Assembly (NCBI GenBank): GCA_013316395.1
Contig: WSMU01000001.1
Span: forward strand, 2,393-66,392
Direction of reading: 5' to 3'
Source: Alphaproteobacteria bacterium
GTDB lineage: Bacteria > Pseudomonadota > Alphaproteobacteria > Rs-D84
Length of the DNA stretch: 64,000 nucleotides
Of the stretch, positions 4,016 to 17,197 are shown piece after piece. The notes under the pieces were generated by a model. It saw only the letters and a list, made by a program, of their open reading frames with translations, was not told the DNA's origin and ran no database searches. How positions within the stretch are numbered: the stretch's first letter is position 1; the number at the start of each line of letters is the position of its first letter. The translations under genes and the position numbers were made by a program.

Positions 4016-6007
4016 ATGAAAAAGAGCATATTTGATCTTCAGAGTGATTACAAACCCATGGGCGACCAGCCGACCGCGATTGCAGAACTGGCCGGTGGTG
4101 TACGTGATGGCCGTCACAGCCAGGTCTTGCTTGGCGTGACGGGTTCGGGTAAAACCTTTACCATGGCAAACATTATCGCAGAGCTGTCACGACCGGCACT
4201 TATCATGGCACCGAACAAAATTTTGGCGGCGCAGCTGTATACGGAAATGAAATCGTTTTTTCCAAACAATCATGTCGAGTATTTCGTTTCCTACTACGAT
4301 TATTATCAGCCAGAGGCTTATATGCCCACAACCGATACATATATTGACAAGGATGCGGCGATTAACGAGCAACTGGACCGCATGCGGCACAGTGCGACGC
4401 GCGCCATGCTGGAAGAGCGTGATGTGGTTGTGATTTCATCTGTTTCATCTATATACGGTATGGGCAGCCCGGAACAATATTCCGGTATGAAGGTGGTGCT
4501 GAATGCGGGCGACAAAATGGGAATGAAAGACGTAATGCGCGCATTAGTAGATATTCAGTACAAGCGTAATGATACCGCGTTCGAGCGTGGTGATTTTCGT
4601 GTGCGTGGTGATACACTGGATGTGTTCCCGTCGCATGCACTGGACCGTGCGTGGAAGATTTCCTTTTTTGGCGATGAAATAGAAGAGATATGGGAATTTG
4701 ATACCCTAACGGGGGCAAAATTGCATCGGCTGGACCGTATTGCAATTTATCCCAATACGCACTATGCCACGCCAATGCCCAGTATTTTGCAGGCAATCGG
4801 TCAGATAAAAACCGACCTGAAGGAGCGTTTGGAATACTTTCATGAAAACATGAAGTATATAGAGGAGCAGCGCCTGCGCGAGCGTGTGAATTTTGATATA
4901 GAAATGATGGAATCAACGGGGACATGCCGGGGTATTGAAAACTATTCCAGATATCTGTCTGGGCGTGCGCCGGGGATGCCGCCGCCAACATTGTTTGAGT
5001 ATTTGCCCCGCGATGCCGTATTGTTTATTGACGAGAGTCATGTTACCGTTCCCCAGATATCTGCAATGTCACGCGGGGACCGTGCGCGCAAGGAGACGCT
5101 GTCACAGTATGGCTTTCGTCTGCCAGCGTGCATTGATAACCGGCCGCTGACGTTTGAGGAGTGGGATGCCCTGCGCCCGCAGACAATATTTGTATCTGCG
5201 ACACCCGCCGCATGGGAAATGGAGCAGGCCGGCGGTATCGTCGCAGAGCAGGTTATTCGCCCGACAGGTCTGCTGGACCCGGTATGCGAGGTACGCCCCA
5301 CCGCGAACCAGGTTGACGATTTGCTGGACCAGATAAAGAAGACCAAGGGGCGTGTACTGGTTACGACACTTACCAAAAAAATGGCGGAGCAGCTAACCGA
5401 TTATCTTAATGAAAACGGTGTGCGTGCAAAATATCTGCACAGTGATATAGAAACACTCGAGCGTATAGAACTGCTGCGTGATTTGCGCCTGGGGAAATAT
5501 GATGTGCTGGTTGGTATTAACTTGCTGCGCGAGGGGCTGGACGTTCCTGAATGTGAACTGGTTGCGATTATGGATGCCGACAAGGAAGGCTTCCTGCGCT
5601 CGACGCGTTCTCTTATCCAGACAATAGGGCGTGCGGCGCGTAATGCAAACGGGCGTGTTATTTTGTATGCCGATAAAATGACGGATTCAATGAATGCCGC
5701 CCTGACGGAAACGGCACGTCGTCGCGAAAAGCAGATGGCATATAACAAGGCGCACGGTATTACCCCAAAGACTGTTACAAAGGCGGTATTTGCAGAGGTT
5801 GGTGAAAAAGAAGAAAAAACGGATAAAAAACGTCGGTTTGTATATGACAAGGCCGGCGGTGTTATGGATGCGGATTCAATTCGCAAGCAGATAAAAGAGC
5901 TGACGCGGAAGATGCGGCGCGCGGCCGAAGATTTAGAGTTCGAAGAGGCCGGTGAATATCGCGATGCGATAAGAAAGCTGGAAGACGACTTGCTGTTGGT
6001 GGAGTAG
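4016..6007 (+). CDS. uvrB: Excinuclease ABC subunit B
   Basis: Walker A (GVTGSGKTFT), helicase motifs and the C-terminal UvrB/UvrC interaction motif (EFEEAGEYRDAIRKLE); 663 aa, full length. Confidence 0.95.
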   Translation: MKKSIFDLQSDYKPMGDQPTAIAELAGGVRDGRHSQVLLGVTGSGKTFTMANIIAELSRPALIMAPNKILAAQLYTEMKSFFPNNHVEYFVSYYDYYQPEAYMPTTDTYIDKDAAINEQLDRMRHSATRAMLEERDVVVISSVSSIYGMGSPEQYSGMKVVLNAGDKMGMKDVMRALVDIQYKRNDTAFERGDFRVRGDTLDVFPSHALDRAWKISFFGDEIEEIWEFDTLTGAKLHRLDRIAIYPNTHYATPMPSILQAIGQIKTDLKERLEYFHENMKYIEEQRLRERVNFDIEMMESTGTCRGIENYSRYLSGRAPGMPPPTLFEYLPRDAVLFIDESHVTVPQISAMSRGDRARKETLSQYGFRLPACIDNRPLTFEEWDALRPQTIFVSATPAAWEMEQAGGIVAEQVIRPTGLLDPVCEVRPTANQVDDLLDQIKKTKGRVLVTTLTKKMAEQLTDYLNENGVRAKYLHSDIETLERIELLRDLRLGKYDVLVGINLLREGLDVPECELVAIMDADKEGFLRSTRSLIQTIGRAARNANGRVILYADKMTDSMNAALTETARRREKQMAYNKAHGITPKTVTKAVFAEVGEKEEKTDKKRRFVYDKAGGVMDADSIRKQIKELTRKMRRAAEDLEFEEAGEYRDAIRKLEDDLLLVE

Positions 6008-7306: not shown

Positions 7307-8404
7307 TACGCGACGCAGCCAATCGCCCCGGCGCCGCCACTTTTCCTGGCGTCGCAGTGCCGCCGCAATACGCGGCTTTTGCATGGACCAGATATGTGCC
7401 GCCAATGCACGGGCCGTTGCGTCATAGGGCAGCTTTTGTACAGGGATTGAAAAAGCGTTTTCAAAAAATTCGGTAACACCGGTCATTTCGGCCCCGCCGC
7501 CGGTCAGCATTATTTTACAAGGTCTATATTTGGCAATGGCCCCCATGGCCGATGATTTTATCAGGCCGGCTATTTCAACCATGCGCGGCAGTACAATTTC
7601 ATTTATATCCGCCCTTGAAAAGTCGTAGGCCGGGTCGGCGGGTGTAAAGCGGTCCATTTCCTGGGGCGCCAGGGATGCGACCGCGCGCTTTATAGTGTCG
7701 GCGGCATCGATGTCTATTTGCATTTTATCCGATATATCGCGCGTGATTTTAGCACCGCCAATCGGTATTTTCTTTAGCGTTACCGGACCGCGGTCCGTCC
7801 AAATGGATGCCGTTGTGAATTCATCCCCCAGGTCTATGAACATTACATTTTCGCGTGCGCGGCGCAATGTTGCGTTTAATAAAAACTGTGGGTCGAAAAA
7901 TCCGGCGGTCTGGATATGGGCGCGACGCATTGCGGCCGTGATTTTATCAAGACGGGCGCGTTCGTAAAATATTGCACCGAATGCAGATATCAGGGCATGG
8001 TCCGTATGGCCAATTGGTGATATTACATTTCGTGCGCCCGGCGTATCATATCGCAGCGGGATTATATGCATGGGATAGAAGCCGTCGGGGGGTGTGATTT
8101 GTGCAATTTGTCCGCGGACATCTGATGCGGTTATTTTATGTTCCCCGCCCCAGTTAGTGCTTTTTGCGGTCATTTCAAAATGGGCCGCGCCAAAGTCCCC
8201 CGTTACATACGCCGCATCAAAATGTGCGCCGATTTGCCGTTCCAGTTCGTCTATGACGGATTTTAAAGCATAGACGGTATCGCGGCTGTCCATTGCAAAT
8301 ATCGCTGATTTATCAATGCGTGCACTGCGTACGCGATGTGCGCATCCGCGCACGCCGGCGGCGCCTATGTCCAGGCACAGAAAAGATGAATCAAACAGGT
8401 TCAT
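7307..8404 (-). CDS. ftsA: Cell-division protein FtsA-like (N-terminal 366 aa of the fused ORF)
   Basis: Actin-like ATPase motifs: LCLDIGAAGVRG (phosphate 1), DLGDEFTTASIW, IMLTGGGAEMTGV. A basic amphipathic tail (WRRRGDWLRRV) follows. ftsQ lies immediately upstream. Confidence 0.7.
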
Positions 8405-8408
8405 TTTT

Positions 8409-9089
8409 TTATTTTACCAATATTCTGGCATCGTCACGCATGTCTATGACCGATATGTCGCGTGATAGCAGGCCGTGCTTTTCATCAAGTACCATAAGCG
8501 TGGCAATCGCCGCGGCTGGGTTATCTTCGGGCAGCATTACCGTTATTCCCCCCAGCGTCTGCATGTTCCAGCGCCGCGATTCTATCCATTCCAGGTAATC
8601 TAGTTTGCCAATCATGTTATGTGCGGATTTTGTTATTTCGGATATATCGGCCGGCAGTGTGCCGCGGAATAGTACGGATGCCGCATCGCGGGTATCTCTG
8701 GGGCGTTTGACTATTGTTCCGTCCGCCGACAGGGGAAAGTATGCCTGGCCGTCGGTCCATTGGGCGACCGCATGATGCATTTCGACCTTTACCTTTAGGT
8801 TGCCATTTGGCATGCGTCGGACCGCGCAATCGCGAACGCCGGGTGTGGCGGCGATGCGTGCGTTTTGGGCGGATAAATCAACACTGTATGTATGTGTGCC
8901 CGGTGCCACCGCGGCGGCCGCCGCAACCGGGTTTAAATCCGGGCCGCGCATGTCGGCGGATATTGATATTGTTCGCACACGCGATACCGTGCCATGACCC
9001 ATTGTTGTCATGATTATGCGCACGGCAAAGTAGGTTGCCAGAATAATTGACAGGGCAAAAAACAGCCAAAACCAGATAGAACGTTTCAT
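8409..9089 (-). CDS. ftsQ: Cell-division protein FtsQ
   Basis: N-terminal TM helix followed by POTRA/FtsQ-like periplasmic domains (KVKVEMHHAVAQWTDGQAYF...SADGTIV; C-terminal ISVIDMRDDARILV). Confidence 0.75.
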   Translation of the reverse strand: MKRSIWFWLFFALSIILATYFAVRIIMTTMGHGTVSRVRTISISADMRGPDLNPVAAAAAVAPGTHTYSVDLSAQNARIAATPGVRDCAVRRMPNGNLKVKVEMHHAVAQWTDGQAYFPLSADGTIVKRPRDTRDAASVLFRGTLPADISEITKSAHNMIGKLDYLEWIESRRWNMQTLGGITVMLPEDNPAAAIATLMVLDEKHGLLSRDISVIDMRDDARILVK

Positions 9090-9601: not shown

Positions 9602-9922
9602 ATGGCGATAACTGTTCAGAATTTTATAAAAATGGCAAACTTTTACAACCAGATGACGATGATGATGTCGGCTATCTGTGTGCAAAAGGGCGGCATCGCT
9701 ATTGAAAATTATGTGGGGCGTTTCTTTGCGGCCGATACTTTGGAATTTGTTTACGAATACGGTCGCCGTTTGGTAGAGGCCGGAAATGTATCGCCGGATG
9801 TGCGTGCGCTGGTGGAACGCTTTCGCATGCAGTATGAGCGTGTGCGGGATTTAACCACACCTTCACAGCGGCCGATTTACGAAATGACGTTGGAAGAATT
9901 TGAAAAGCTGATGAACATATAG
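9602..9922 (+). CDS. Hypothetical protein
   Basis: 106-aa ORF co-oriented with the downstream lipoprotein/lolCDE genes; no recognisable motif. Confidence 0.4.
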   Translation: MAITVQNFIKMANFYNQMTMMMSAICVQKGGIAIENYVGRFFAADTLEFVYEYGRRLVEAGNVSPDVRALVERFRMQYERVRDLTTPSQRPIYEMTLEEFEKLMNI

Positions 9923-9934
9923 CGGGGGCAGGGA

Positions 9935-11266
9935 ATGAAAAAAAATAGATTTATTTATATGTTAGCGGCCGCGGTGATATGTGCGGCCTGTACCCAGCGC
10001 GCATCCCGCGAGCAGGTGCCGCAATTTGATACCGTCACCGTTGTCGATAATCTGGTTATTGATGAAAACTCGGTGCCGATTTTTCCGAAAAAAGCGGCGC
10101 TGACGACAGATACGGCGCGCAGATTTTCAATTGAACTGCCCAAGCGGTGCAGTGTGGACTGGAATAACCAGAGTGTTGTTTCCGTTGTCCCGGAAGAGAA
10201 GATAGAAGTTGTTCGTCTGGATATGGGTGATGAGTTGCCCGATTTGCAGGTTTCGGATTATGAGTTTAAGCAACTGACGGTAAAGCAGGCGCTGGACAAG
10301 CTGCTGAGCGGTACGGACATTGCCGTCGTTGAAGACGACCAGGGTATAGAAAAAATAACGGGTGCCATTCAATCGGGACGCTTAAGCGATGCGGTTGAGT
10401 TAATGGCAAAAATGGGACGTACATATTTTTCCTATGATGCGGCGGCGGCCGAGTTGCATTTGACGCATCGCGCCAAGTGGATGATAAAAATGCCGCGCGA
10501 TGAAACGATAATAATGGCCCTGCTGGATGCGATGCATGGTGCCGATATGCGTAATCTGCTGGTTAACTGGCAGGACAAGACGGTCGTATTCGAAGGCAAC
10601 TATCAGACAGAACGCGAAGTGGCGCGCATCATTGCCGATATATCGTCTAAGAAATACATGATTGCATGGGATATCGATGTGTATCGTGTGTATCCAAAGA
10701 CAGATAATCCTATTATCTGGATGAATTTGCTGCCGGCATTTGGGGATAAGAATGTTCGTATGTCGATACCGGGTGTTGTTGGGCGTGCGCTGGTTGTCGG
10801 GCCAGAGATTAACACAAAAACACTGCAGGAGTTTTTATCACAGCAGTCAAATGTTGTTTTAATATCACAGGGTACTTTTTCTGTTCCAAACGGATGGCAG
10901 TCGCGTTTTGATATAGGGCAATGCGGCAAGGAAGAACGTCTGGAGACGGACCTGATTATAGGTGCAACCGGAAAATATGGTAATTTTGGCGGCTATAAAA
11001 AAATCGATGCAAAGATTGTGTTGCGTACCAGCCAGGGTGAACTATCATCGTTTACGATACCGTCTAGCATTGGTGACAACTATGTCATAATCGGTATTCC
11101 GACGCACTCTTTTGTTACAACGCCGGAAACACTGATAAGTCCGTTTGCGGAACTGGTTGTCTTTATGTCGCCGCGCATAATATCTATTGTTGATGCCGCC
11201 GATGTGCCGGATAATTCGTTTACACCGCTGGTGGGGGATGCACTGCGTGCGTTTTTGGCAGAATAA
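9935..11266 (+). CDS. Hypothetical lipoprotein, 443 aa, with a secretin-like C-terminal tail
   Basis: Lipobox ICAAC. The C-terminus (TIPSSIGDNYVIIGIP...ELVVFMSPRII) loosely resembles the end of secretin domains. It sits directly upstream of lolC/E-lolD. Confidence 0.5.
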   Translation: MKKNRFIYMLAAAVICAACTQRASREQVPQFDTVTVVDNLVIDENSVPIFPKKAALTTDTARRFSIELPKRCSVDWNNQSVVSVVPEEKIEVVRLDMGDELPDLQVSDYEFKQLTVKQALDKLLSGTDIAVVEDDQGIEKITGAIQSGRLSDAVELMAKMGRTYFSYDAAAAELHLTHRAKWMIKMPRDETIIMALLDAMHGADMRNLLVNWQDKTVVFEGNYQTEREVARIIADISSKKYMIAWDIDVYRVYPKTDNPIIWMNLLPAFGDKNVRMSIPGVVGRALVVGPEINTKTLQEFLSQQSNVVLISQGTFSVPNGWQSRFDIGQCGKEERLETDLIIGATGKYGNFGGYKKIDAKIVLRTSQGELSSFTIPSSIGDNYVIIGIPTHSFVTTPETLISPFAELVVFMSPRIISIVDAADVPDNSFTPLVGDALRAFLAE

Positions 11267-11278
11267 GGGATAAGAAAA

Positions 11279-12535
11279 ATGTTGTTTTCACGGCTGGAAA
11301 GAAAAATTGCTTTTCGATATATGTGGGCTAAGAAACGCGGATTTGGTTCCGTGATATCTTGGGTATCACTGGTTGGAATCGCGCTGGGGGTGGCGACCCT
11401 GATTGTTGTAATGTCGGTTATGGCCGGATTTCATGACACACTGCTGAATAGAATTGTTGGAATGAACGGGCATGTTGTTGTCTATCATCAGGATGGGGCA
11501 ATCGCAGATTATGATTTCCTGATAGATAAAATGCGCCAGAACAAGGTTGTAGCCGCCCGCGTGACCGATATTGTGCCAATCGCAGAAGGTCAGGTAATGG
11601 CCACCGCCGGCGGAAATAATACAGGGGCCATGATACGTGGAATACGTATGACCGACCTGCAGGCAAAGGTGGATAAGGGGACAAAAATATACGGTCGGCC
11701 GATTGCGGAAATAAAAGAAGGTGAACTGGTTGCAGGGGCTAATTTGACCCGGGCCTTGAATGTTACAATGGGGGACAAGATATCCCTGGTGTCGGCGGCG
11801 GGTGCAACACCAACGCCGTTTGGTACAATGCCGCGGATTATGGCGTATCCGGTGAAGTCTTCTTTCTTTATGGGAATGTATGAATACGACTCGGGGTATA
11901 TATTTATGCCGCTGGAAACATCGCAGAAGTATTTAAATATCGGAAATGCCGTAACGCATATAGACCTGTTCCTGGATGACCCGGAAGATACGCGTGCGGT
12001 TGCGGATGCATTGGCGCGCTTGTTGCCGGATGGTTTTGTTGTTCGTGACTGGCGTGATTTGAACCGCGGTTTTGTCGGCGCCCTGCAGGTGGAATCGAAC
12101 GTAATGTTTTTAATATTGATGCTGATAGTAATTGTCGCCGCATTTAATATAGTTTCAAGTCTGGTTATGCTGGTAAAGGATAAATCCAAAGATATTGCGG
12201 TACTGCGTACGTTTGGGGTGTCGCGCCGTTCTATGATGAAGATATTCATATTATCCGGGACCAGTATCGGTGTAATAGGTGCCCTTGTTGGAACCGTGTT
12301 GGGTGTTGTTGTCGCGATATACATAGAGCCCATACGCAAGGCGGTTCAGTTCATGACAGGTCGCGACCTGTTTCCGGCGGATTTGTATTATTTGTCGGAA
12401 CTGCCGTCAAAGTTGTCACCGGCCACGGTATTTGGGATTGCGGCGCTGGCGGTGGCGCTGGCTTTTGTGGCGACACTGTATCCCGCATGGAAGGCCGCAT
12501 CCACAGACCCTGTTGACGTACTAAGGAACGAATAA
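11279..12535 (+). CDS. Lipoprotein-releasing system permease, LolC/LolE (FtsX/MacB) family
   Basis: TM1, a large periplasmic domain, then three C-terminal TM helices; the N-terminus KIAFRYMWAKKRGFGSVISWVSLVGIALGVATLIVVMSVMAGF is typical of LolC/E. Confidence 0.8.
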   Translation: MLFSRLERKIAFRYMWAKKRGFGSVISWVSLVGIALGVATLIVVMSVMAGFHDTLLNRIVGMNGHVVVYHQDGAIADYDFLIDKMRQNKVVAARVTDIVPIAEGQVMATAGGNNTGAMIRGIRMTDLQAKVDKGTKIYGRPIAEIKEGELVAGANLTRALNVTMGDKISLVSAAGATPTPFGTMPRIMAYPVKSSFFMGMYEYDSGYIFMPLETSQKYLNIGNAVTHIDLFLDDPEDTRAVADALARLLPDGFVVRDWRDLNRGFVGALQVESNVMFLILMLIVIVAAFNIVSSLVMLVKDKSKDIAVLRTFGVSRRSMMKIFILSGTSIGVIGALVGTVLGVVVAIYIEPIRKAVQFMTGRDLFPADLYYLSELPSKLSPATVFGIAALAVALAFVATLYPAWKAASTDPVDVLRNE

Positions 12536-13245
12536 TGGCGAACATATTAAATTCTTTGTCAAAGGTATCACGCGGCGATGTTGTGTTGTCTGTGCGCGAT
12601 ATTAAAAAGACATTTATGGAAGGCGGCCAGCCGTTGCATATTTTGCGTGGTGGTGGTTTTGATTTGCACCGCGGCGAGATAATTGCACTGGTCGGACAGT
12701 CGGGCAGTGGAAAGTCAACTTTGCTGCAGTGTGTGGGACTGTTGGACCGTCCGTCGGCGGGCAGTATTTTAATAGGCGGAATCGCAGCCCAAAAGATGGA
12801 TGATGAAATGCGAACCGCAATGCGTCGCGATAAGATAGGCTTTGTATATCAGCGACATAATCTGTTGGGGGATTTTACGGCGCTGGAAAATGTGGTGCTG
12901 CCGATGTTGACGCGCGGTGTGGCAGAGGCCGATGCAAATATTCGGGCGTTAAAGCTGTTGCGGGCGGCAAATGTGGCGCATCGCGCATCACATCTGCCGG
13001 GCGAGATGTCCGGCGGCGAGCAGCAGCGAACCGCCGTTGCGCGCGCATTGGCAAACGGGCCAGAGATTTTATTAGCAGACGAGCCGACCGGCAGCCTGGA
13101 CCCGGCGCATGCCGCGGCTGTATTTGACCTGCTGCTTGACTTGGTGCGAAAGAATAAGATGGCGATGCTGTTTGTAACACATGATATGAATTTGGCCGCA
13201 CGCGCCGACAGAACAATTACAATAAAAGACGGAATAGTTAAATAA
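12535..13245 (+). CDS. lolD: Lipoprotein-releasing system ATP-binding protein LolD
   Basis: ABC Walker A GQSGSGKST, signature LSGGEQQR, Walker B ILLADEPT. Its start codon overlaps the permease stop (TAATG). Confidence 0.85.
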   Translation: MANILNSLSKVSRGDVVLSVRDIKKTFMEGGQPLHILRGGGFDLHRGEIIALVGQSGSGKSTLLQCVGLLDRPSAGSILIGGIAAQKMDDEMRTAMRRDKIGFVYQRHNLLGDFTALENVVLPMLTRGVAEADANIRALKLLRAANVAHRASHLPGEMSGGEQQRTAVARALANGPEILLADEPTGSLDPAHAAAVFDLLLDLVRKNKMAMLFVTHDMNLAARADRTITIKDGIVK

Positions 13246-13270
13246 ACAATAAAAAACGGAGGGAGAAGAC

Positions 13271-14014
13271 ATGGTAAAACAAAATACTACAAAGGTGGCA
13301 TGCTGTTCTCGGCGCCAGAAAATCTGGGGTATTATTGCATTGGCGGGGTTGTTTGCATGCGGACTAATGGTGGGGCTTGCCTTTAATGCCGGGGACCGTA
13401 GTTCAACAGTTGAACTGGCGGGTCACACAAATGACACAGAGCCCGATACAGCCGACAAGGAAACCTGTGAGGTAATAGAAGATTTTCTGTTGCGTCGAAT
13501 TAACCCCATTGATTCCGACCAGGTGGCCGCGCATAGTATGAATGTTGAAATATATCAGATACTGATAGAAAACGGATGTCCGGAAAATTCTGAAAAATAT
13601 CAGGCACTGATGCAGCAGGAATCTGCGATATTGGATATCTTAATCAACAGACAGATGCCTGAAAATTCTCAGACATGTTCGGAAATTCAATCCCTGCTGA
13701 TGCAGCAATTACCAAATGGTAATTTGAATGACAGCCAAACTCGCATCGAACGTGCAAAAATCTATGCTAACTTGTCCGAGCGCGGATGTCCTGAAAATTC
13801 GCAGCAGTATGCGGAACTGGCGGCGAAAGAATTGGAAATTGCCCGCGCTCTGCGTGATGACTACTTTAACCATAATGAAACACTTGAAGTGGTTGAAACC
13901 TACAAGCGCCTAGAGATGAAACAAGCCGCGGCGGACGTATTGGACAAGGTTCAAAAGCTGACCGACCCGGCGATTGACTTTATTATTCAAGTACAGAAGA
14001 TAATAGAAGAATAA
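13271..14014 (+). CDS. Membrane-anchored hypothetical protein with three ~38-aa (G/R)CPENS repeats
   Basis: N-terminal TM helix (IWGIIALAGLFACGLMVGLAF). Repeats are NGCPENSEKYQALMQQE, RQMPENSQTCSEIQSLLMQQ and RGCPENSQQYAELAAKE. Confidence 0.5.
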   Translation: MVKQNTTKVACCSRRQKIWGIIALAGLFACGLMVGLAFNAGDRSSTVELAGHTNDTEPDTADKETCEVIEDFLLRRINPIDSDQVAAHSMNVEIYQILIENGCPENSEKYQALMQQESAILDILINRQMPENSQTCSEIQSLLMQQLPNGNLNDSQTRIERAKIYANLSERGCPENSQQYAELAAKELEIARALRDDYFNHNETLEVVETYKRLEMKQAAADVLDKVQKLTDPAIDFIIQVQKIIEE

Positions 14015-14017
14015 AAG

Positions 14018-14656
14018 GTGGCGTCAATGCGTGGATTTATATTTGCATTAGTAGGTATTGCCATTTCATCCGCGGCGGTGGCGGCGGATGTGGCGGCGCG
14101 CCAGTCATGTGCCGACATCAAGGGACGTATCGACACATTGGCGGCGCAGGGGGATTTAAATGATTCTGATGCGGCACTGCTGACTGACTTGCGCGCGGCA
14201 TATCGTCGTGACTGTGTGGCGCGTGCATCGGGTCGCGGGTCACGGACAATCGCCGCCACACGCACCCAGATAGCCGTACCCCAGACGCCGGCGCAAAATA
14301 CTGATGCCGCCGCCGTGGCCCCGCAAGAGCCCCTGGTCGCGGACCCATGTGATAATCCGGATGCAAATGGCTGCTGTCCCGGGGAAGAATATGCCGACAT
14401 CGGAAACGGTGTAATGTATTGCTGTAAGGGGGATGCATGCTTTCCGCCGATGCCCGTGACACCATCGGTGCCGGAAAAGTCGGAGGAGGAAATCGCCGCC
14501 GAAATAGCGGCCAATATTGAAAAAGGTCTTTGCGGTGACGGCACCAAGCCCAACAAGTTCGGTTGCTGTGCTGGCGAGATTTTTAAGGATTTAGGTAATG
14601 CCACATTTGCCTGTTGCAAGAAAGACGGCGAAGAATGTTTCCCGCCAATGCAATAA
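14018..14656 (+). CDS. Secreted Cys-rich protein with a duplicated CC-x-GE...CCK-D-x-CFPPM module
   Basis: Signal peptide MASMRGFIFALVGIAISSAAVAADV. Two repeat units: GCCPGEEYADIGNGVMYCCKGDACFPPMP and GCCAGEIFKDLGNATFACCKKDGEECFPPMQ. Confidence 0.55.
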   Translation: MASMRGFIFALVGIAISSAAVAADVAARQSCADIKGRIDTLAAQGDLNDSDAALLTDLRAAYRRDCVARASGRGSRTIAATRTQIAVPQTPAQNTDAAAVAPQEPLVADPCDNPDANGCCPGEEYADIGNGVMYCCKGDACFPPMPVTPSVPEKSEEEIAAEIAANIEKGLCGDGTKPNKFGCCAGEIFKDLGNATFACCKKDGEECFPPMQ

Positions 14657-14660
14657 AAAA

Positions 14661-14685
14661 GCAGCCCATTTCGGGCTGTTTTTTA
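14661..14685 (+). terminator. Rho-independent terminator
   Basis: GCAGCCC-ATTTC-GGGCTG followed by TTTTTT. Confidence 0.7.
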
Positions 14686-15152: not shown

Positions 15153-15180
15153 CGGTTTTTACCGGCGTTTTTATTTTATT
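15153..15180. terminator. Hairpin terminator, probably bidirectional
   Basis: GCCGGT-TTTTA-CCGGC followed by GTTTTTATTTTATT. It lies at the 3' end of the minus-strand lipoprotein gene. Confidence 0.5.
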
Positions 15181-15544
15181 CCACGCAGCTGTAGGTGTAG
15201 CTTTTTGGCATGCGGTACAGGTTGTTGGTTATTGCATCAATCGCAATTGGTACAATCCCGAAAATGATTCCGGGGAATATGTCAAAGAATATCGCCGGAC
15301 CGTTCGGACGCCGCGTTACAATAGGCTGCGGACAGTTTTCATTAAGGTTTGATATCGCAATGCCGTTGTTTGACTGAATCCGGAGATGGCTGTCGGGTTT
15401 TATTTTGAATATACCACTGTCCGAAGATGCGCTGATTGTATCGGATGAGTTATTATAAATCATTGTTTCATGATTACTGCCGATGCCAATTGTTCCGCAG
15501 GATGCTATTCCTAGTATTAGGGTAAATGCAAACATACGTTTCAT
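15176..15544 (-). CDS. Hypothetical small lipoprotein
   Basis: Signal peptide with lipobox LGIASC; Ser/Asn-rich mature part. Confidence 0.45.
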   Translation of the reverse strand: MKRMFAFTLILGIASCGTIGIGSNHETMIYNNSSDTISASSDSGIFKIKPDSHLRIQSNNGIAISNLNENCPQPIVTRRPNGPAIFFDIFPGIIFGIVPIAIDAITNNLYRMPKSYTYSCVE

Positions 15545-15556
15545 TTATTATCTCTT

Positions 15557-17197
15557 TTATTCGTAAATTTCAACGCTGTCTATGTATGTGCGATTAACAG
15601 ATTCCAAGGCGCGCGGCTTAAAATCAGGATTGGCTACAATCTCGTCGCTGTCGTCTTCGGGCAGGATTGTGACGATATTTTGCTGTTCTGGCACGGGTGT
15701 CTGTGTTACGTTTGCACCATACGTTTTGGATTTATATTTCCCGGTCAGGCGGTCCGGAATCTGGATATATGTCAGCGGGTTTATTCCCGGTGTTTCCATT
15801 GCCATTGCGCGTGCCGGTGACAGGCTCTGCTGGTCTATATTATATACCGGCGACAGGAAACTGGTTGGTGCGGCCTTTACCTCACGCGGGGTGGGGGCGC
15901 CCGCAATTTCTACGATGCGCAGGGCGCGCTGGCTGGCGCCGTTTGGCGTCAGGCGAAACAGCCCGTCTATGCCGACATAGCCACTGGGGTCGAGCAGATA
16001 GGCCGCGTTGGATTTATCAGAATAAATCATTCCCACCGCCAGGTTGGCCGCGTCATATCCAAACGATGCCAGGCGCGACGGCGCCGTGCCGGCGATTTGT
16101 TCATATACATTTACAAATGCAGGATTCATTTCCGGCAATGCTGGATATTTTGCCCCGCTTAGCGTTATATCAGAGTCAATATTTGCGCCATCCCACATTG
16201 CGGTTCCATACAGGTGCACATCACGCGCCCCAACACCATAATAGCGCAGGAAAGACACCAGTGATTTTGCATCGTCGCCCGTCCCCAGCATCAGAACCGC
16301 ATCATAAGGCAGGCGGCCAATGGTTTCGGATTTTGATATGCGGTCCAACTGGCGCGAGAGGGATGATTTTTCAATCGCCGTCAGGCGTTCAGTGGTAAGA
16401 ATATCAGATAGTATTTCGCGTGCGCGGTTGTTTGCTGCGCTGCGCGCGGCGTATAGTGATGCGGTATGTGCCGTGTTTTTAATAGAGTCTGTATCTTTCT
16501 CGCGGTAAAAGACAACACCGGCAACGGGGATGTCGTAGTTTGTTGCCGCCGCACGTGCCGCCGCAGCCATAAGACGCCCGGAGCTCGTTTCCGGTGCCAG
16601 GATTACCATAGCGCGGCTTTTGTCTGCGGATATCTCACGCACAATGGCCTCGACCCCGTTGGTAGGCATCAGTGCCATTGTCATAACACCGTCGCCGATT
16701 GCTGTGGCGTCGGATGTGAAGGATATTGCAGGCATTTCAGACGGCTTCATAGAGCGCAGCATCCGCGCATCGGCCGCAAACAAGGGCCCGACTATTATTT
16801 CCGGATTTTGTGACAATGCATTGTTTATTGCCGCGGCGGTATTCGCACCGGTATCAAAGAACGATACCGACAGGCTTTGCGGGGCGCGTTGCAAGACGGC
16901 TGTTTCGATTGATGTTTTTATTACGCGTCCGGTGGCGGCGTTGTTGCCCGACAATGGCAATAAGACCGCCATGCGATGTGGTGCGTTGTCTGTTTCGGTA
17001 TGTGTGCCATACATCGTCTGGGCCGGGCCGGCGGGTGCCAGTGTGCCGTATTCCCCGTGCCATGTGTTACGGGTCGCGGTCGTGGCGCATCCGGTTAACA
17101 GCACGCATGTACTTAAGAAGCCTAAAATTTTATTCATATGCATTGAAAAATCCATTTTATTCTGTATCATTTTACTATAAAAGGATTTTGAATGCAA
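15557..17197 (-). CDS. lpoA: Lipoprotein of the LpoA (YraM) / periplasmic-binding-protein type 1 family
   Basis: Lipobox LLTGC after the internal start MNKILGF (a start at 17137 is more likely than 17197). C-terminal PBP-type-1-like fold. Divergent from rsmI, as E. coli yraM is from yraL. Confidence 0.55.
   Translation of the reverse strand: MHSKSFYSKMIQNKMDFSMHMNKILGFLSTCVLLTGCATTATRNTWHGEYGTLAPAGPAQTMYGTHTETDNAPHRMAVLLPLSGNNAATGRVIKTSIETAVLQRAPQSLSVSFFDTGANTAAAINNALSQNPEIIVGPLFAADARMLRSMKPSEMPAISFTSDATAIGDGVMTMALMPTNGVEAIVREISADKSRAMVILAPETSSGRLMAAAARAAATNYDIPVAGVVFYREKDTDSIKNTAHTASLYAARSAANNRAREILSDILTTERLTAIEKSSLSRQLDRISKSETIGRLPYDAVLMLGTGDDAKSLVSFLRYYGVGARDVHLYGTAMWDGANIDSDITLSGAKYPALPEMNPAFVNVYEQIAGTAPSRLASFGYDAANLAVGMIYSDKSNAAYLLDPSGYVGIDGLFRLTPNGASQRALRIVEIAGAPTPREVKAAPTSFLSPVYNIDQQSLSPARAMAMETPGINPLTYIQIPDRLTGKYKSKTYGANVTQTPVPEQQNIVTILPEDDSDEIVANPDFKPRALESVNRTYIDSVEIYE

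Follow-up and report, generated by a model that had tools for sequence, protein, structure and literature searches.

Within a 64,000-nucleotide stretch of contig WSMU01000001.1, from an alphaproteobacterium of the order Rs-D84 (the whole stretch is called the window here), two adjacent genes, P1 and P2, lie directly downstream of the lolCE and lolD genes for the lipoprotein-export (Lol) transporter. Both encode previously undescribed protein families, and their position suggests that they are hitherto unknown accessory parts of the lipoprotein-export machine. The reading favoured here, with a probability of roughly 0.45, is that P1 and the six-cysteine module K of P2 form a clade-specific periplasmic complex near the inner membrane that is coupled to LolCE/LolD, an ABC (ATP-binding cassette) transporter of type VII.

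The gene pair and the lol operon

P1 and P2 are described below in terms of a membrane anchor, a signal peptide (SP) and four modules: R (a three-helix repeat), T (the C-terminal domain of P1), H (a two-Cys hairpin) and K (a six-Cys knot). The first-pass annotation of the window had reported a two-gene cassette between lolD and a terminator, and this layout is correct – both genes are co-directional open reading frames (ORFs) after the lolD stop at 13245, and a stem-loop with a run of T follows them. The gene string contains the following features.

9602–9922, + strand: 106-aa ORF that heads the string (ORF list)
9935–11266, + strand: gene for a 443-aa lipoprotein, lipobox ...ICAAC/T
11279–12535, + strand: lolCE/lolF permease gene (TIGR02212, 413 bits; cutoff 362)
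12535–13245, + strand: lolD ATPase gene (LolD is the top match)
13258–13264, + strand: Shine-Dalgarno sequence of P1, GGAGGGA, 6 nt 5' of the ATG (sequence inspection)
13271–14014, + strand: P1 gene, 247 aa, architecture anchor-R-R-T (ORF and homologues)
14015–14021, + strand: Shine-Dalgarno sequence of P2, AAGGTGG, 5 nt 5' of the ATG at 14027
14027–14656, + strand: P2 gene, 209 aa, architecture SP-H-linker-K1-helix-K2 (ORF, 99 homologues and AlphaFold2 model)
14662–14685, + strand: intrinsic terminator-like stem-loop, a GC-rich hairpin CAGCCCATTTCGGGCTG followed by TTTTTT (sequence and consensus scan)

The genes 5' of P1 overlap or are at most 12 nt apart, lolD and P1 are separated by 25 nt, and P1 and P2 by 12 nt. 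The strong intrinsic terminator after P2 is the only one found by the consensus scan. To judge from this layout, P1 and P2 probably belong to the same operon as the upstream lipoprotein, lolCE and lolD genes. The most likely start of P2 is the ATG at 14027, since AAGGTGG stands 5 nt upstream of it and all homologues begin with MR or MK; the GTG at 14018 chosen by the ORF finder is probably unused.

The order lipoprotein-lolCE-lolD-P1-(K gene) was found in 80 of 80 species-level genomes. More distant loci, cited here by L number, keep the association in other gene orders: L095 has lipoprotein-lolCE-P1-lolD (Lol identity 66–75%), L091 has lolCE followed directly by an anchor-H-R-R-K fusion, L096 and L100 have lolCE-lolD-P1 (Lol identity 63–72%), and L094 and L099 have lolD-P1. 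In L092/L093, the gene immediately before a 35%-identical P1 encodes a MacB-type permease other than LolCE (22% identity to it), within a cluster of outer-membrane efflux protein, membrane-fusion protein and ABC permease genes (OEP-MFP-ABC). There the P1 homologue faces a 419-aa, extremely Cys-rich secreted protein (L092, 1879–8828; the Cys-rich protein at 7569–8828, – strand). Adjacency of P1 to lol genes or such a permease was thus seen in the 80 species loci and in L086–L089, L091, L092/L093 (permease only), L094, L095, L096/L097, L099 and L100. Judged by gene order, P1 follows MacB/FtsX-type permeases more faithfully than it follows K.

Distribution and module architecture

A word-index search returned 670 homologues of P1 and 99 of P2, and an exhaustive HMMER search with the P1 profile over 1.84 billion representative proteins gave 217 relatives at E≤0.001. 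The homologues of both proteins are all annotated as "hypothetical protein", and the source organisms named are uncultured Alphaproteobacteria or unclassified bacteria. All P1 relatives that can be placed are gut Alphaproteobacteria of the order Rs-D84; the GTDB species genomes carrying the family are those of Candidatus Enterousia and of gut and rumen Alphaproteobacteria. Members of Rs-D84 reportedly have genomes of <1 Mb with a coding density of ~90%, are fermentative, have no respiratory chains, are probably partner-dependent and have been proposed to carry many unknown membrane proteins (PMC12306168).

Module architecture was determined by running one hidden Markov model (HMM) per module over 100 loci. 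Nearly all of the 80 species loci have a P1 of the form anchor-R-R-T. Distant members have a single R and match P1 positions ~125–247 only, so that the second repeat arose by duplication inside the family. A single-protein metagenome scan for distant P1 yielded one locus, L100. In the main clade the gene 3' of P1 always has a K module, except where the contig stops, and the gap between P1 and the next gene is ≤20 nt in 81 of 81 loci (80 species and the window). The genes that follow P1 are arranged in four ways.

H-K, then a separate ~80-aa mini-K gene: 41 loci (and 4 that also have extra paralogues)
H-K only: 12 loci (and 1 with a one-repeat P1)
H-K-K: 12 loci, including the window
mini-K only (deep branch): 12 loci

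A separate mini-K gene is found in none of the H-K-K genomes. The mini-K proteins (71–99 aa) consist of a basic tail, a hydrophobic segment of 18–22 residues with a GxxxG of its own, a linker of 5–15 residues and K. Most of the hydrophobic segments have no cleavage motif; a few N-termini have AxA-like motifs and are therefore possibly cleaved. Cleaved or not, the module is predicted to start on the periplasmic side of the inner membrane.

P1-type parts and K are also joined in single chains. The fusion P0340, with the order anchor-R-T-K, takes the place of P2 behind an ordinary P1, and P0364 has the order anchor-H-R-R-K. Such fusions are a textbook sign that the separate proteins work together. 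That the H module is common to P1 variants and P2 also counts for a coupling of P1 with K.

Several relatives carry additional genes or inserts. A gene for 204–234 aa lies exactly between lolCE and lolD in L010 (4528–5232), L013 (3269–3883), L017 (4218–4874) and L042 (4509–5213), overlapping or abutting both neighbours; the window does not have it. Extra paralogues between lolD and P1, in L048 (5537–5962), L007 (5398–5940), L013 (4644–5387 and 5405–5941) and L017 (5607–5954), reuse the P1-type anchor or bear single R- or H-like modules. In some P1 variants (P1 of L042 and L044, and P0220) the anchor is followed by a beta-rich insert of ~100 aa. These paralogues and inserts show active module shuffling. 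The P1 variant P0356 (L096, 3464–4375) has a C-terminal extension with the EF-hand-like DTNNDGCVTREEWDAF and no K gene downstream. In L081 (4393–6240; also L082 and L083), which belongs to a different lineage of gut Alphaproteobacteria, 3 nt separate an LppC/LpoA-like lipoprotein gene from a 79-aa mini-K gene downstream of it.

Anatomy of P1

P1 is divided into an anchor, two repeats and the T domain.

13271–13384, + strand: anchor module, a basic tail (aa 1–17) and a transmembrane helix (aa 18–38) (alignment, hydropathy, charge)
13457–13654, + strand: repeat R1 (aa 63–128), three helices, Cys66 and Cys103 (GCPEN turn)
13667–13855, + strand: repeat R2 (aa 133–195), three helices, Cys136 and Cys173; the copy conserved family-wide
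13856–14011, + strand: T domain (aa 196–247), DDxF..ETxEVVETYKRLxM...KLTDPAIDFI...IIEE (alignment, AlphaFold2, T HMM)

The protein had been described as membrane-anchored, and it has a single hydrophobic segment (aa 18–38) with a net charge of +5 before it and −4 after it. From this charge bias and the paired cysteines, P1 is predicted to be a single-pass inner-membrane protein with its N-terminus inside, its C-terminus outside and a periplasmic ectodomain. Invariant positions in the transmembrane helix are F28, C30 and G31-xxx-G35 in the homologue alignment, and the glycine is invariant even in the most distant members. The anchor HMM also matches paralogues in related loci. In the cytoplasmic tail, the subclade of the window has a CC doublet at aa 11–12 (13301–13306; VACCSRRQK), where other members have V-x-H-[ST].

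Two other readings of the N-terminus were rejected. A lipoprotein with an LFAC lipobox, which would need a small residue (A/G/S) at −1 and an invariant Cys at +1, does not fit the homologues: they have A, M, V, T, L, I, G or F at position −1, the distant proteins P0269, P0323 and P0340 lack the Cys, and the hydrophobic helix runs on past it. The class III signal of type IV pilins is G/F(M)xxxE, with Glu at +5, while P1 has no Glu after the conserved WG and shows G-[IVLA]-[IVL]-A-L-x-G there, unlike a pilin or pseudopilin.

An acidic, variable linker joins the transmembrane helix to R1. The earlier description of P1 as repetitive was right, but its division into three ~38-aa repeats was not: there are two units of ~65 aa. 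Residues 63–128 and 133–195 align over ~60 residues (z=12.6; 0 of 2000 shuffles reach the score), and the family profiles of R1 and R2 match over all 63 columns (hhalign 99.3%, E=1e-20). The supposed middle core, MPENSQ (aa 129–134), falls in the stretch that links the two units. It lacks the Cys, gives way to unrelated residues in homologues and scores only weakly above chance (3 of 2000 shuffles). Each unit reads TCxxIE ... IYxxLxxxGCPEN ... ELEIxxAL. In the invariant pairs C66/C103 and C136/C173, each with a spacing of 37, the first Cys opens helix 1 (TCxxIE) and the second closes helix 2 (GCPEN).

The AlphaFold2 model of P1 is all-helical, with three helices per unit and a predicted local distance difference test (pLDDT) score of 85–94 over aa 60–190. 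The T domain, the most conserved part of the family, is modelled as a long helix (201–246) at lower confidence.

P2 and the H and K modules

P2 combines a signal peptide, an H module and two K modules.

14027–14083, + strand: signal peptide (aa 1–19), MRGFIFALVGIAISSAAVA followed by AD, cleavage motif AVA/A (sequence inspection and hydropathy)
14099–14236, + strand: H module, a helical hairpin, sCadIk...L..LR..YRRDC.aRasGR (alignment, AlphaFold2)
14348–14452, + strand: K1, a six-Cys module (C-x7-CC-x14-CC-x4-C-FPPM), CDNPDANGCCPGEEYADIGNGVMYCCKGDACFPPM
14531–14653, + strand: K2, a six-Cys module (C-x10-CC-x14-CC-x6-C-FPPM), CGDGTKPNKFGCCAGEIFKDLGNATFACCKKDGEECFPPM

The signal peptide and the two Cys-dense modules noticed in the first pass are both borne out, the former by its AVA/A motif and the latter by the similarity of K1 to K2 (Smith-Waterman z=14.3; 0 of 2000 shuffles reach the score). 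P2 is predicted to be secreted and periplasmic. Its H module has an invariant Cys pair (C28 and C63 in the 209-aa numbering), and the H HMM also matches inserts in long P1 variants (L004, L096 and L100). The overall Cys pattern of K is C-x7–10-CC-x13–14-CC-x4–7-C. All six Cys of K2 are invariant across the P2 family; K1 is restricted to the subclade without a separate mini-K gene. The number of invariant Cys per module in P1, P2 and K is even, which counts for a periplasmic location. In the AlphaFold2 model, pLDDT exceeds 90 on H, K1 and K2 (94–96 on H), and the Pro/Ala/Thr/Gln linker is below 50 and disordered.

The stretch between K1 and K2, which had been called an acidic linker, does separate the modules, but it is not a mere spacer; it contains a conserved helix (EEIAAEIAANIEKGL) that belongs with K2. 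K2 shares 62% identity with the single K module of H-K proteins and is nearer to it; K1 shares 42% identity with that module and 51% with mini-K, to which it is nearer. These closest relatives moderately support the view that K1 and K2 are two diverged K paralogues that were joined, rather than a recent tandem duplication.

P1 and P2 are not relatives of each other: whole-protein hhalign gives a probability of 1%. H of P2 and R of P1 align over 8 columns around the first Cys (10%), and a single-sequence hint (z=5.4) is unsupported at profile level.

Comparison with known families and folds

Neither protein had been assigned to a family in the first pass, and none was found here. The best Pfam E-value for P1 is 0.11, with no NCBIfam match, and P2 has no Pfam or NCBIfam match at E≤1. 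When 32 P1 and 38 P2 homologues were scanned singly, no family recurred. Sequence profile searches of the PDB gave nothing for P1 and one non-significant match for P2 (E=2.3). Foldseek searches of the PDB returned only generic helical repeats for P1 (14-3-3 and kinesin light-chain TPR; E 0.07–0.4, template modelling score ~0.2–0.28), and nothing below E=2 for P2 (Notch EGF and granulin at E 2.3–9.1). P1 and P2 are previously undescribed protein families, and their modules R, T, H and K are new. Searches with tblastn found no match to P2 in 50,697 phage records and no match to P1 or P2 in 72,556 plasmid records; with core chromosomal genes on both flanks, the cassette is not mobile-element cargo.

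Like TPR, Sel1 and 14-3-3 proteins, P1 has stacked antiparallel helices built from repeated units. The TPR/Sel1 unit is 34–36 aa with two helices, however, while that of P1 is ~65 aa with three, and P1 was rejected as TPR/Sel1-like because there is no TPR or Sel1 Pfam match at E≤1 and the Foldseek matches are non-significant. The Sel1-like Hcp proteins of Helicobacter are disulfide-bridged and, like P1, have conserved Cys pairs; those of P1 probably staple helices.

K resembles granulin and EGF-like domains in having ~35–40 residues, six Cys that include two CC doublets, and short beta-hairpins in the AlphaFold2 model. Unlike them it is bacterial, predicted to be periplasmic and confined to one alphaproteobacterial order. 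It was not accepted as such a domain, the C-CC-CC-C pattern matching no Pfam model and the Foldseek E-values being ≥2.

In LapB/YciM a membrane anchor is followed by TPR repeats and then by a Cys-rich rubredoxin-like domain, and the soluble part lies in the cytoplasm. The fusions P0340 and P0364 run in the same order, from an anchor through helical repeats to a Cys-rich module at the C-terminus, and likewise occur in an envelope-biogenesis setting. P1 and P2 differ from LapB in being placed outside the cytoplasm by charge bias and signal peptides, in having no TPR or rubredoxin match, and in a Cys pattern other than CxxC.

LolA and LolB share an open beta-barrel fold with an alpha-helical lid. 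P1 and P2 are not carriers of this type, with an all-helical model for P1, a hairpin and knots for P2, and no Pfam match.

Selection and rate of change

Rates were calculated for the window genes against five relatives. Since dS was saturated (>1 or not computable), dN ratios were used with a few values of dN/dS. The dN of P1 is 4–6 times, and that of P2 about 2.5–4.6 times, that of lolCE, lolD and the lipoprotein gene. Where computable, dN/dS is 0.04–0.14, with P1 at ~0.14 in the one pair with computable dS. P1 and P2 are real genes under purifying selection that change fast outside the cores R2, T and K2.

A proposed partner complex of the Lol transporter

All four type VII ABC systems of E. 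coli act through a periplasmic partner, and the genes for YbbAP and for TesA share a genomic location (PMC12646458). On this precedent, P1 is proposed as such a partner. P1 would cross the membrane once through a helix with a GxxxG packing motif and expose two repeats of three helices, each with a probable disulfide staple, as well as a conserved helical C-terminal domain. P2 would be exported by its signal peptide as a Cys-stapled hairpin with two six-Cys knot modules. The knot module would be the constant partner of P1, being encoded right after it and sometimes self-anchored or fused. P1 may dock on the permease as LolA, EnvC, MacA and TesA do with other type VII ABC transporters, its transmembrane helix contacting permease helices and its ectodomain the periplasmic domain of the permease, and may in this way keep the knot module beside the permease. 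The complex could modulate the extraction or release of lipoproteins, or be driven by the ATP-powered movements of the transporter. The gene structure, the modules, the topology signals, the narrow distribution, the operon linkage and the fusions are demonstrated by the data; we infer the disulfides, the contacts of P1 with the knot module and with LolCE, and any effect on lipoprotein trafficking.

Like LolA, EnvC, MacA and TesA, P1 is encoded with a MacB_PCD/FtsX-type permease and an ATPase and is predicted to be extracytoplasmic. MacA has an N-terminal membrane anchor, as P1 does, and the ectodomains of EnvC and MacA are largely helical, as is that of P1. P1 differs from these partners in having no sequence similarity or significant fold similarity to them and no catalytic or barrel domain, and its cysteine-knot partner is without equivalent among those systems. 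A bolder form of the proposal, which we consider rather unlikely, is that P1 and the six-Cys knot proteins are Lol subunits in Rs-D84, a fifth kind of type VII partner that binds LolF/LolD and controls or assists extraction or hand-over, perhaps with the 443-aa lipoprotein at the outer-membrane end.

A number of observations weigh against coupling to the transporter. One P1 homologue (L098) does not adjoin lol genes or a permease of this kind, no K module lies near P1 in the distant loci L095, L096 and L100, and mini-K genes also occur beside an LppC/LpoA-like gene or elsewhere. The 80/80 synteny partly reflects shared ancestry, since the Lol proteins of the main clade are 70–94% identical, and in compact genomes unrelated genes can share operons. 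Change at 2.5–6 times the rate of Lol, as well as the duplication, loss and shuffling of modules, is unusual for parts of an essential machine. Rs-D84 reportedly has no respiratory chains, which makes the predicted periplasmic disulfides harder to account for. The alignment of the window LolCE to E. coli LolC also runs across the Hook hairpin (TPFGTMP versus TPMGRIP). The Hook of LolC is the essential LolA-recruiting element, and Hook-LolA contacts have been modelled in diverse Gram-negative bacteria including Alphaproteobacteria (PMC10865981). The LolA hand-off is therefore probably intact, with no missing Lol function that needs a new component. Because the LolC-type Hook is retained, substitution of LolA by P1 or P2 is unlikely, and this role was disfavoured.

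Alternative explanations

The main rival to partnership with Lol, although on balance a doubtful one, is that P1, P2 and K make up a periplasmic complex that serves a separate function (for example structural, metal-binding, redox or peptidoglycan-linked) and share the lol transcript through tight packing only. The small, densely coded genomes of Rs-D84 would favour such packing (PMC12306168), the neighbouring genes mix envelope with housekeeping functions (AsmA, FtsQ/A, LppC, tRNAs), and one JGI record calls a mini-K an "uncharacterized Zn-finger protein". The scattered mini-K genes, the faster change of P1 and P2 than of the Lol genes, and an intact Hook that leaves no gap in Lol to fill point the same way. 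Against this, adjacency to lolCE persists in three gene orders, down to 63% Lol identity, and one P1 adjoins a different MacB-type permease. The position of P1 between lolCE and lolD in L095 is hard to obtain by passive packing alone.

The first-pass annotation had suggested a binding or adhesion function, possibly at the host interface. P2 would then be released from or displayed on the cell and mediate adhesion to a host or partner cell. This we now regard as improbable. The cleavable signal peptide and flexible Pro/Ala/Thr/Gln linker of P2 would suit it, as would fast divergence, shuffled modules and the proposed partner dependence of Rs-D84 with its many unknown membrane proteins (PMC12306168). 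However, P1 is predicted to be anchored in the inner membrane, there is no evident route across the outer membrane, and Pfam scans of P1, P2 and their homologues show no similarity to adhesin families. No phage or plasmid copies were found, and apart from P1 of L098 the genes are locked to lolCE/lolD despite differences in gene order. The occurrence of K in anchor-plus-K mini-proteins, with linkers of only ~5–15 residues, and in C-terminal fusions to anchored proteins places it near the inner membrane in the periplasm rather than at the cell surface.

Least probable of all is the export of K-type Cys-rich proteins from the periplasm by the MacB-type ABC transporter, with the upstream lipoprotein as its outer-membrane component and P1 as adaptor, chaperone or immunity protein. 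MacAB-TolC exports the enterotoxin STII, and such a system would resemble it; the Cys-rich protein opposite P1 in the OEP-MFP-ABC cluster of L092, the weak STN matches of the 443-aa lipoprotein (9 of 15 members) and the possibly cleavable AxA-like motifs of some mini-K N-termini would fit, but the permease scores above the LolCE cutoff (413 versus 362 bits) and keeps the LolA-recruiting Hook, as a housekeeping Lol extractor does, which weakens the idea of a dedicated exporter, and the window operon has no membrane-fusion protein or TolC-like gene, most mini-K segments (18–22 residues) have no cleavage motif, K is fused to anchored proteins and no secretin domain was detected in the lipoprotein.

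Neighbouring genes

The 443-aa lipoprotein gene (9935–11266, + strand) lies directly 5' of lolCE in every related locus. Its identity among relatives is 63–93%, a conservation on a par with LolCE. Profile searches of Pfam, NCBIfam and PDB sequences assigned it to no family, the STN-domain matches noted above being weak only. Its C-terminus looks secretin-like to us, but the searches revealed no secretin domain and it was not accepted as a secretin. The protein may be a part of the outer membrane that is linked to this Lol operon. The 106-aa ORF at 9602–9922 (+ strand) is conserved, has no signal peptide and has homologues at the same position in L086, L088, L095 and L100.

Downstream of the terminator are tRNA-Gly and tRNA-Tyr genes. 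The wider neighbourhood is core chromosome, with genes for AsmA, UvrB, FtsA/FtsQ, an LppC/LpoA-like lipoprotein, RsmI, EngB and AddB, and further for RecA, LptF/G, MutL and aminoacyl-tRNA synthetases. The LppC-like gene (15557–17197, – strand) converges on the P1-P2 cassette and adjoins a gene for a 122-aa lipoprotein (15176–15544, – strand) for which no family was found; a look-alike of the latter, at 4900–5250 in L096, converges on the P1 gene there. The window contains no further paralogues of the cassette proteins. A Cys-rich ORF (34833/34884–35369, + strand; 15 Cys in 161 aa) has no Pfam match and is unrelated to K or to the Cys-rich protein of L092; it may have a hydrophobic N-terminus if an upstream TTG is used.

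Significance

Should the linkage to lol be passive, P1 and P2 would still be two new periplasmic families confined to one clade, a result of modest interest. The four sequence modules R, T, H and K are defined regardless of function, and the lol-P1-K operon is a clear marker for the uncultured order Rs-D84.

The Lol system, an antibiotic target, is indispensable to Gram-negative bacteria, and its composition outside the Beta- and Gammaproteobacteria is still being worked out. To our knowledge there is no LolB outside these two classes. Single-permease LolF systems and different LolA contacts occur there (PMC10865981). The strongly reduced genomes of Rs-D84 keep P1 and its K-gene partner in the lol operon in every species examined, a retention that points to the importance of the pair for these bacteria. 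Should P1 and its partner bind LolF/LolD, they would be a new accessory module of a well-studied machine and a new type of partner for mechanotransmitting ABC transporters.

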